Source: an uncultured delta proteobacterium (lineage in GTDB: Bacteria; Myxococcota_A; Polyangia; Polyangiales; Houyiibacteriaceae). From it: a DNA stretch of 64,000 bases. Below, piece by piece: positions 63,001 to 64,000 of this stretch. Location: NCBI GenBank assembly GCA_963699755.1, contig CAVOVB010000005.1, positions 231,831-295,830 on the forward strand, read 5' to 3'. Position numbers: made by a program. How positions within the stretch are numbered: the first letter of the stretch is position 1; each line of letters begins with the position of its first letter.

Positions 63001-64000
63001 CGGCGAAGCGATCAGCGGGGCGCTCTTGCGACGATGGCTGAGAGGTGCCGTCCGGTTGTTCCGTGGTCGCGGCGGTGCGAAAAGAACTGCGCAGCGTCGC
63101 TGTGCGTGCATCCGCCTACATCGTCGATCGCGCCTTCGGGGACCCCAAGGTCGTGCAGCTGGAACTGGATCAGCGCGGCGAGGTCCCCATGAGGTTTCGA
63201 GGCGTCACGTCGGACCACCGCGCGACCTTCCGCGGCCTCTTCCATCTGGCGAGCAACGTCTTCGTCGATCTCGAAGGCTTCGACTCGGATGTGCGGGCCG
63301 ATGGCGACGATCAGCTCGGCTGGGTCGTGCGCAAGCGCATCGATGGCGCTTCGCACGACTCCAGCCACGGCGCCGCGCCAGCCGGCATGCGCTGCCCCAG
63401 CGTGACCGCTCGGCGGATGCGCGATGAGGACCGGGACGCAATCGGCGGTTCGCGCCGCAATCCCCAAGCCGTCGGCCCGCGCGATCAGCGCATCGCCTTC
63501 TTCATCGCCTATCGCTTGCGCGAGATCGGAAACGTCACGCACCTGAGTCCCATGGACTTGCCGCTGCTCGTAGAGGCGATCGACGTCGAGCTCGAGGCTC
63601 TTGGCGAAGCGAACCCGGTTCGCCCGGACCGCTGCGTCGTCGTCGCCGAGATGAAAACCGAGATTAAGAGTGTCGTACGGCGCGGAGCTCACGCCGCCCA
63701 GACGCGTCGAGAAAGCATGGCGGAAGCCGTGCCGATCCAAAAGGCGGGAATGCAAGGCGCACACGCTCTAGTCTGTAGCACGAGCCACCGCGCTGGGGTG
63801 TTGACCTCGGGGCAGGGCTCACTAGGAGGAGCGCCAGACCTGCGGGATTTCGGGGCACAGGGCCACCCACTTGACAGGCGGCGGCTCTTGACTACTTTCC
63901 GCCCCTCCGATTGCTGCGGAAGTGGCGGAACTGGCAGACGCGCTAGACTAAGGATCTAGTGGGGTAATACCCGTGGAGGTTCGAGTCCTCTCTTCCGCAC

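Follow-up and report, generated by a model that had tools for sequence, protein, structure and literature searches.

Within the window, by which we mean the whole 64-kb stretch of DNA that was analysed, ARAGORN places two tRNA genes, a tRNA-Asn and, at the very end of the sequence, a tRNA-Leu with the anticodon AAG (Table 1). ARAGORN extends the latter over 63916-64000(+), one base further than the alignment to the Rfam tRNA model RF00005, which covers model positions 1-71 of 71 and, at 53.6 bits (E = 6.3e-10), exceeds the gathering score of 29. In this alignment the transcript forms a cloverleaf of four stems together with a long variable arm, the type II architecture of leucine tRNAs; free-energy folding did not recover the cloverleaf (z = -1.67), and the structure described here is that of the Rfam alignment. 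The gene begins with base 1 of the acceptor stem, its T-arm reads GGTTCGAGTCC, and its discriminator A73 lies at 63999. The anticodon arm is CUAGA-CUAAGGA-UCUAG, in which A34, the presumed deamination site, corresponds to position 63950. The single C that follows the discriminator may be the start of an encoded CCA. A scan of 63500-64000 for promoters and terminators found none.

Table 1. Features at the tRNA-Leu(AAG) locus, in window positions.
Feature	Position	Strand	Source
tRNA-Leu(AAG) gene	63916..63999	+	ARAGORN, Rfam RF00005, sequence
Anticodon loop, C32-U33-A34-A35-G36-G37-A38	63948..63954	+	Sequence
53-base 3' segment of the tRNA, anticodon loop to contig end, with attachment-site-like copies elsewhere	63948..64000	+	Sequence matches
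C 3' of the discriminator, final base of contig C5	64000..64000	+	Sequence; C5 has 295,830 bases

The assembly to which the window belongs (11 contigs, 5.35 Mb, 62.5% GC) carries 55 tRNA genes when ARAGORN is run over its entire length. Five are leucine tRNAs, with anticodons CAG, UAG, CAA, UAA and AAG; no tRNA-Leu(GAG) was found anywhere in the assembly, and the only other tRNA with an adenosine at position 34 is tRNA-Arg(ACG). Leucine codons were counted independently in crude ORF calls (4169 ORFs, covering 89% of the genome), where CTC is the most frequent (70,376 codons, 43.8%), followed by CTG (25.1%), TTG (13.1%), CTT (13.0%), CTA (4.3%) and TTA (0.8%), so that CUC and CUU together make up 57% of leucine codons in these calls. 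An earlier note on this DNA had described the same set of five leucine tRNAs without GAG, with tRNA-Arg(ACG) as the sole companion A34 tRNA, and had named CUC as the commonest leucine codon with a CUC plus CUU share of about 56%; both descriptions hold in our analysis. The preference extends to genes expected to be heavily translated, CTC and CTT accounting for 44% and 17% of leucine codons in 33 ribosomal-protein and elongation-factor genes and for 54% and 12% in rpoB/rpoC. Highly expressed genes thus rely on tRNA-Leu(AAG) for their main leucine codon.

Besides the copy at the end of C5, the 53-base segment that runs from loop base 32 to the last base of that contig occurs three more times in the assembly, at C7:8013-8065 (100% identical), C7:48398-48450 (94%) and C1:1935479-1935529 (94%). 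Genes adjoining these copies encode a tyrosine integrase (PF00589), an IS91-type transposase, MobA/VirD2 relaxases and a NikA-like protein, and the presence of the copies beside integrase and relaxase genes marks tRNA-Leu(AAG) as an integration site for mobile elements. Partial copies that start at bases 30-36 of the gene are seen in many genomes of the genus, and in several of them no more than about 100 bases separate the AAG gene itself from a contig end. Judged from these matches, the 53-base repeat is the likely cause of the break at the end of contig C5.

Two DNA patterns, one for the AAG and one for the GAG gene, were applied to the same set of 401 genomes drawn from the phylum. The AAG gene was found in 81 of them and the GAG gene in 269, with neither in 51 and both in none, the mutual exclusion that would be expected if AAG fully replaces the function of GAG. 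Of the families within the order (251 genomes sampled), f1 and no fewer than 17 others have the AAG gene, one of them (f22) with genomes of 10-11 Mb and 100% completeness, and GAG is the form found in families f10, f12, f16 and f17; this pattern search returned 207 rows, 55 of which were not among the matches listed, and the pattern overlooks some genuine genes, four families (f7, f8, f14 and f15) being AAG by ARAGORN and not by pattern. Outside the order the AAG gene is present in the same class in families f25 and f28 and in part of f26, in other classes of the phylum in f35 (28 of 34 genomes, with GAG in 0), f51, f64, f67 and f82, and in lone genomes of the otherwise GAG-bearing families f41, f52 and f57.

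A scan of all bacteria with the AAG pattern (185,579 species) gave at least 121 loci, of which ARAGORN reads at least 120 as tRNA-Leu(aag). The matches listed include Lachnospiraceae and other Clostridia, Streptococcus and other lactic acid bacteria, Akkermansia and other Verrucomicrobiota, Planctomycetota, Cloacimonadota, Fermentibacteria, Acidimicrobiia/Actinomarina, Patescibacteria, Nitrospirales, Hydrogenedentota and Vampirovibrionales, as well as Alpha- and Gammaproteobacteria MAGs and Myxococcota MAGs. These taxa are taken from record titles, and some of the MAG records may be mis-binned. The proposal that the genome represents one further bacterial lineage with this replacement is accordingly too narrow, given its occurrence in 81 of the 401 genomes of the phylum and in many other phyla among the matches listed from the wider scan.

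The anticodon loop of tRNA-Leu(AAG) closely resembles that of the genome's own tRNA-Arg(ACG). The two loops, CUAAGGA and CUACGGA, are equal at six of seven bases and differ at base 35 only, and the loops of the other four leucine tRNAs of the genome are unlike CUAAGGA. The loop also fits the TadA recognition sequence (U33-A34-(C/A)35-G36 followed by a purine at 37 and A38), which is the consensus YUAMGRA reported for S. pyogenes TadA in PMC11472039. Across the phylum the AAG loop is CUAAGGA in 75 of 81 cases, with UUAAGGA in four and UUAAGGU in two, so that all but two have A38 (79 of 81); the GAG loop is UUGAGGU or UUGAGGG in every one of the 150 rows (out of 279) that are among the matches listed. 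For Arg(ACG) the loop CUACGGA was found in 24 of 25 matches, from 24 of 30 genomes, the pattern having no match in the other six. The same Leu loop recurs beyond the phylum, CUAAGGA making up 101 of the 123 AAG loops among the matches listed from the all-bacteria scan, in which the pattern itself requires G37.

Two pairs of tRNAs reveal how such a loop can arise. The AAG tRNA of genome G241 and the GAG tRNA of G260, from the same genus, agree at 78 of 83 positions, the differences being U32C, G34A, U38A and two bases of the variable arm, and the AAG tRNA of G560 shares 80 of 89 positions with a GAG tRNA from the same family, with G34A and G38A among the changes. Identity to the window tRNA is considerably lower (66 of 85 positions for G241 and 60 of 88 for G560). 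By these alignments, at least two lineages have clearly switched from G34 to A34 independently, each on its own GAG backbone. The tRNA appears to have become a substrate of TadA by copying the anticodon loop of Arg(ACG), with C32 and A38 the same and base 35 different. The mimicry is not universal, since six of the 81 AAG loops (UUAAGGA, UUAAGGU) do not have the Arg-like form while Arg(ACG) in those genomes keeps C32; no co-variation of base 32 between the Leu(AAG) and Arg(ACG) loops was found, Arg having C32 where Leu has U32.

The candidate enzyme is encoded on contig C1 (C1:116294-116776), 1.3 kb from the tRNA-Arg(ACG) gene. It is the one protein above the NCBIfam cut-off for TadA (NF008113, 173.6 bits against 150), the assembly containing in addition two weaker deaminase-fold matches far below that cut-off. 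Its catalytic motifs HAE and PCxxC are intact in the alignment, and PDB TadA chains match it at E values of 1e-48 to 1e-41, among them 7cph (1.7e-48), 2b3j (7.8e-48), which is the S. aureus TadA-RNA complex, 2nx8 and 1z3a. The earlier note's single TadA is therefore upheld; no sign was found of the broadened substrate range that it suggested for the enzyme, there being no AAG-specific column in TadA and the visible change lying in the tRNA loop. In an alignment of TadA from 19 AAG lineages and 20 GAG lineages no column separates the two groups (the TadA query, at E 1e-15, had no match in 2 of 21 AAG genomes, G415 and G480). The best column is residue 22 in the numbering of this genome, at which 16 of 20 GAG lineages have Ala against 4 of 19 AAG lineages. 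Five contrasts between sister lineages contain 32 variable columns and no consistent residue; at residue 22 three of them show a change from A to R, R and P and one runs in the opposite direction. In PDB chain 3ocq the residue aligned to residue 22 is a Trp, which we take to be Trp23 of the E. coli enzyme, where evolved base editors carry a change; we regard this as a lead only.

From these alignments the fit between the AAG tRNA and TadA seems to lie in the tRNA and not in a broadened enzyme, and a changed enzyme does not appear to be required. Some adaptation of the enzyme might nevertheless be expected from work on E. coli TadA, which fails on S. pyogenes tRNA-Leu(AAG) in the experiments of PMC11472039 and, as described in PMC11066159, edits an AAG anticodon placed in the otherwise ideal Arg2 loop to only about 15%. 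In the latter source any change at position 32, 37 or 38 of the Arg2 loop abolishes editing by the E. coli enzyme.

Precedent for the proposed modification comes from the Lactobacillales, where O. oeni and three streptococci (S. pyogenes, S. mutans and S. pneumoniae) have been shown to contain inosine at position 34 of tRNA-Leu(AAG) (PMC8072771, PMC11472039, PMC13249217). The S. pyogenes tRNA is described as fully I34 and edited by that organism's own TadA, which acts on both Leu(AAG) and Arg(ACG) (PMC11472039), and the tRNAs of S. mutans and S. pneumoniae are likewise given as I34 and TadA-edited (PMC13249217). By the account of PMC13249217 (2026), the bacterial tRNA-Leu(AAG) genes of GtRNAdb are almost all from Bacilli, with Mycoplasma and Prochlorococcus as further cases. 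Our search of a limited literature collection found no paper that links A34 or TadA with Myxococcota.

The likeness to the Lactobacillales is extensive: an A34 leucine tRNA stands in place of GAG, with no family having both as far as PMC13249217 describes them, a single TadA is present, the loop fits YUAMGRA (PMC11472039), and tRNA-Leu(UAG) is kept. The differences lie in the host, here a member of the Myxococcota with 62.5% GC, in the top leucine codon, which is CUC here and UUA in Lactobacillales, and in codon response, CUU and CUC having risen in Lactobacillales whereas in our small near-tadA sample AAG and GAG lineages show no shift. The Leu and Arg loops differ at 35 alone here and at both 35 and 37 in S. 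pyogenes, and editing, measured in Lactobacillales, is here a prediction. Compared with the canonical Arg(ACG)/TadA pair, the enzyme family (NF008113) and the loop context CUA-N-GGA are the same, while the substrate has A35 instead of C35 and is a type II leucine tRNA with a long variable arm. The eukaryotic ADAT2/ADAT3 system also includes an I34 tRNA-Leu(AAG), one of eight I34 tRNAs, that supplants the G34 isoacceptor. ADAT2/ADAT3 is, however, heterodimeric, depends on the complete tRNA and is relaxed in its choice of loop (PMC8266599, PMC11472039), unlike the one homodimer-type TadA, the mere two A34 tRNAs and the Arg-copying loop seen here. The AAG swap is therefore a new example of the TadA-edited tRNA-Leu(IAG) known from Lactobacillales and not a new type of decoding; what is added here is that AAG and GAG strictly exclude one another, that the swap arose repeatedly while converging on the Arg loop, and that TadA shows no matching signature.

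Taken together, these observations make it probable, in our judgement, that A34 of the sole G34/A34-type leucine tRNA for the CUN box is deaminated by TadA and that the resulting Leu(IAG) takes over the job of tRNA-Leu(GAG). Under this proposal the transcribed tRNA-Leu(AAG) would have its A34 converted to inosine by the single TadA that already edits tRNA-Arg(ACG); the product would read CUC and CUU, could read CUA, and would fill the role that tRNA-Leu(GAG) has in sister lineages. Editing from A34 to I34 is the best reading of the AAG/GAG exclusivity, the Arg-like loop, the dominance of CUC in ribosomal and other genes and the Lactobacillales precedent. We infer both the deamination and the codons read from features that are observed directly: the gene itself, the complement of tRNAs, the codons used, the mutual exclusion of AAG and GAG, the loop mimicry with its repeated origin and an intact TadA.

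The loss of tRNA-Leu(GAG) might instead be an artefact of a fragmented, mixed bin, the gene being present in unassembled DNA. Such an artefact would be in keeping with the position of the AAG gene at a contig end, with the contamination of the assembly, rated at 9%, and with the nature of contig C7, 71% of which aligns to C1 at 81.6% identity and with synteny, so that the assembly includes part of a second, related genome, in agreement with the contamination figure. In addition, 15 of 55 genomes sampled from the genus have neither an AAG nor a GAG gene. However, the contig break is accounted for by the 53-base repeat, and the other 40 genomes of the genus sample all have AAG, with GAG in just one of the 55 (G049), where it sits on a divergent, foreign backbone and is accompanied by AAG. 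Two near-closed genomes of the genus (G008, 4 contigs, and G014, 6 contigs) contain AAG, CAG and UAG and lack GAG, and the phylum sample holds not one AAG genome in 81 that carries GAG too. The reading of individual loci gives a similar picture: 25 of 30 loci in relatives are AAG by ARAGORN (with three CAG, one eight-base loop and one incomplete), and the next-best BLAST matches to the AAG gene in relatives are CAG at 17 of 20 loci, with one AAG and two incomplete. We therefore attach almost no probability to a hidden GAG gene.

A more serious alternative accepts the loss of GAG and dispenses with inosine, A34 remaining unmodified or being edited in small part, with CUC read either through A34:C mispairing or through four-way wobble of tRNA-Leu(UAG), a mode of decoding used by some Mollicutes and organelles with reduced tRNA sets. 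RNA-level records might be taken to favor it. A search of sequencing runs yielded 14 RNA-labelled runs with half or more of three sampled tRNA words, and four were examined (X3, X6, X11 and X13). One 87-nt metatranscriptome contig (X3 record 18, depth 25.9) matches window positions 63915-64000 with 0 differences and thus has A34, as does a 74-nt metatranscriptome contig (X11 record 5, 0 differences). No G at 63950 is listed in the four runs, a result to be read with the facts that Logan contigs drop minor variants, that DNA carry-over or precursors are possible and that there is no Arg(ACG) control. Many contigs of other organisms cover the conserved 5' half in these runs, and the table of differing letters is empty. 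As they stand, the contigs lend editing no support and do not refute it either. Unedited A34 would also be compatible with the two phylum loops (UUAAGGU) that are unlike the TadA loop, with the lack of any TadA adaptation in the AAG/GAG comparison, and with reports that some bacterial A34 tRNAs, the Thr and Ser tRNAs of O. oeni, stay unedited (PMC8072771).

Against this stands the codon usage, CUC being the top leucine codon even in ribosomal and rpoBC genes whereas engineered tRNAs with an AUG anticodon and unmodified A34 are described as favoring U to C at a ratio above 95:5 (PMC11066159). Nor have AAG lineages shifted toward CUU: around tadA, the AAG and GAG lineages (19 and 20 loci) have CUC fractions of 0.44 and 0.43 and CUU fractions of 0.13 and 0.12, in small samples of 19,214 and 28,696 codons from crude ORFs. 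This argues against unedited A34, which should favor CUU, and the equal use of CUC in GAG lineages indicates at the same time that CUC dominance near tadA is not tied to the AAG swap. The gain of C32 and A38 convergently with A34 has no obvious reason unless TadA recognizes the loop. Finally, the cmo5U pathway was not found, CmoA (TIGR00740) having no match and the CmoB family merely a 26-bit partial match to a methyltransferase, which makes the reading of all four CUN codons by tRNA-Leu(UAG) unlikely. We consider decoding by unedited A34 improbable on balance, though it has a good deal more in its favor than a GAG gene missed in assembly, and retain deamination by TadA as the preferred reading.

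The integration site at the gene raises a further possibility about how a TadA-edited tRNA might be acquired. Since the repeat carried by the elements extends from base 32 onward and takes in the AAG anticodon, every integration gives the gene a loop and a 3' half that come from the element. Mobile DNA could in this way supply the functional anticodon loop of tRNA-Leu(AAG), and inosine-dependent decoding could spread sideways, an idea that we put forward as speculative and think very improbable. If the loop were element-borne, an Arg-like A34 loop could turn a resident GAG gene into AAG in a single step. The patchy distribution in the phylum would then be partly explained, and so would the occurrence of a near-identical arm, CUAGA-CUAAGGA-UCUAG, on unlike tRNA bodies, as in genome G408, whose tRNA is identical to the window tRNA-Leu(AAG) at 64 of 87 positions.

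If editing is true, the absence of tRNA-Leu(GAG) in AAG lineages would, for annotation, be no sign of an incomplete genome. Inosine-based decoding of leucine would then be a recurrent bacterial solution and not a quirk of AT-rich lactic acid bacteria, serving GC-rich genomes as well, in which leucine is most often encoded by CUC, the codon read by I34. The convergent change of bases 32 and 38 toward the Arg(ACG) loop would suggest a rule by which a new TadA substrate copies the old one while the enzyme stays unchanged, a rule that would bear on the natural sequence tolerance of the TadA enzymes used in base editors and on how the larger eukaryotic set of I34 tRNAs may have begun.

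The last 53 bases of tRNA-Leu(AAG), comprising the 3' side of the gene with the anticodon included, recur elsewhere in the genome under study (G000) as attachment-site-like copies, two of them on contig C7 and one on contig C1 (see table). Genes adjoining the copies encode a tyrosine integrase, an IS91-type transposase, a relaxase and NikA-like mobilisation proteins. In this genus tRNA-Leu(AAG) is a hotspot for integration, with the crossover falling within its anticodon loop.

Coordinates of tRNA loci, repeated segments and matching contig stretches
Feature	Location	Matching stretch or context
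53-base 3' segment, source copy	window 63948-64000	within tRNA-Leu(AAG)
Attachment-site-like copy	G000:C7:8013-8065	
Attachment-site-like copy	G000:C7:48398-48450	
Attachment-site-like copy	G000:C1:1935479-1935529	
C7/C1 matching stretch, example	G000:C7:300,000-345,000	G000:C1:1,655,000-1,705,000
Small tRNA neighbourhood holding tadA	G000:C1:116294-118133	
tRNA-Leu(GAG)	G049:C105:68-120	
AAG-type tRNA with additional T (L020)	G025:C20:157556-157641	

Over the whole of C7 (435,813 bases), 71% aligns to C1 at a mean identity of 81.6%, and gene order is conserved between the two contigs (tuf, rplKAJL, rpoBC and more). The assembly therefore includes a sizeable portion of another, related genome, in agreement with the 9% contamination figure and with the doubling of tRNA clusters, the cluster Thr-Tyr-Gly-Thr-Trp being present once on C1 and once on C7. 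Separately, 62-68% of the length of contig C9 (20.6 kb) matches parts of C3 and C4 at 99.3-99.7% identity; C9 is either a stretch that is mobile or repeated in the genome, or a duplicate created by the assembly.

The gene for the presumed A34 editor, tadA, is followed immediately downstream by tRNA-Ser(CGA) and tRNA-Ser(GGA); tRNA-Arg(ACG), TadA's own substrate, lies 1.3 kb away on the opposite strand. In several relatives (e.g. G275, G165, G456, G295 and G315) the distance from tadA to tRNA-Arg(ACG) is at most about 200 bases.

Among 55 genus genomes the sole tRNA-Leu(GAG) was found in G049, which also carries the AAG gene. Its backbone differs from the Leu tRNAs of the genus, and the contig bearing it is probably mis-binned. 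In G025, the anticodon arm of an AAG-type tRNA (L020) is longer by one T (CTAAGGATT), and ARAGORN accordingly gives an eight-base loop with anticodon 'aagg'; the extra T could reflect either an error in sequencing or a genuine variant.

Among the matches listed from the contig scan (L096-L216), tRNA-Leu(AAG) with the Arg-like CUAAGGA loop occurs, by record title, in many phyla. Lachnospiraceae in culture (Coprococcus comes, Roseburia porci and Butyrivibrio) are among those titles, as are MAGs labelled Akkermansia. Judged by the record titles listed, the spread of tRNA-Leu(AAG) reaches far past the Bacilli of the literature consulted.
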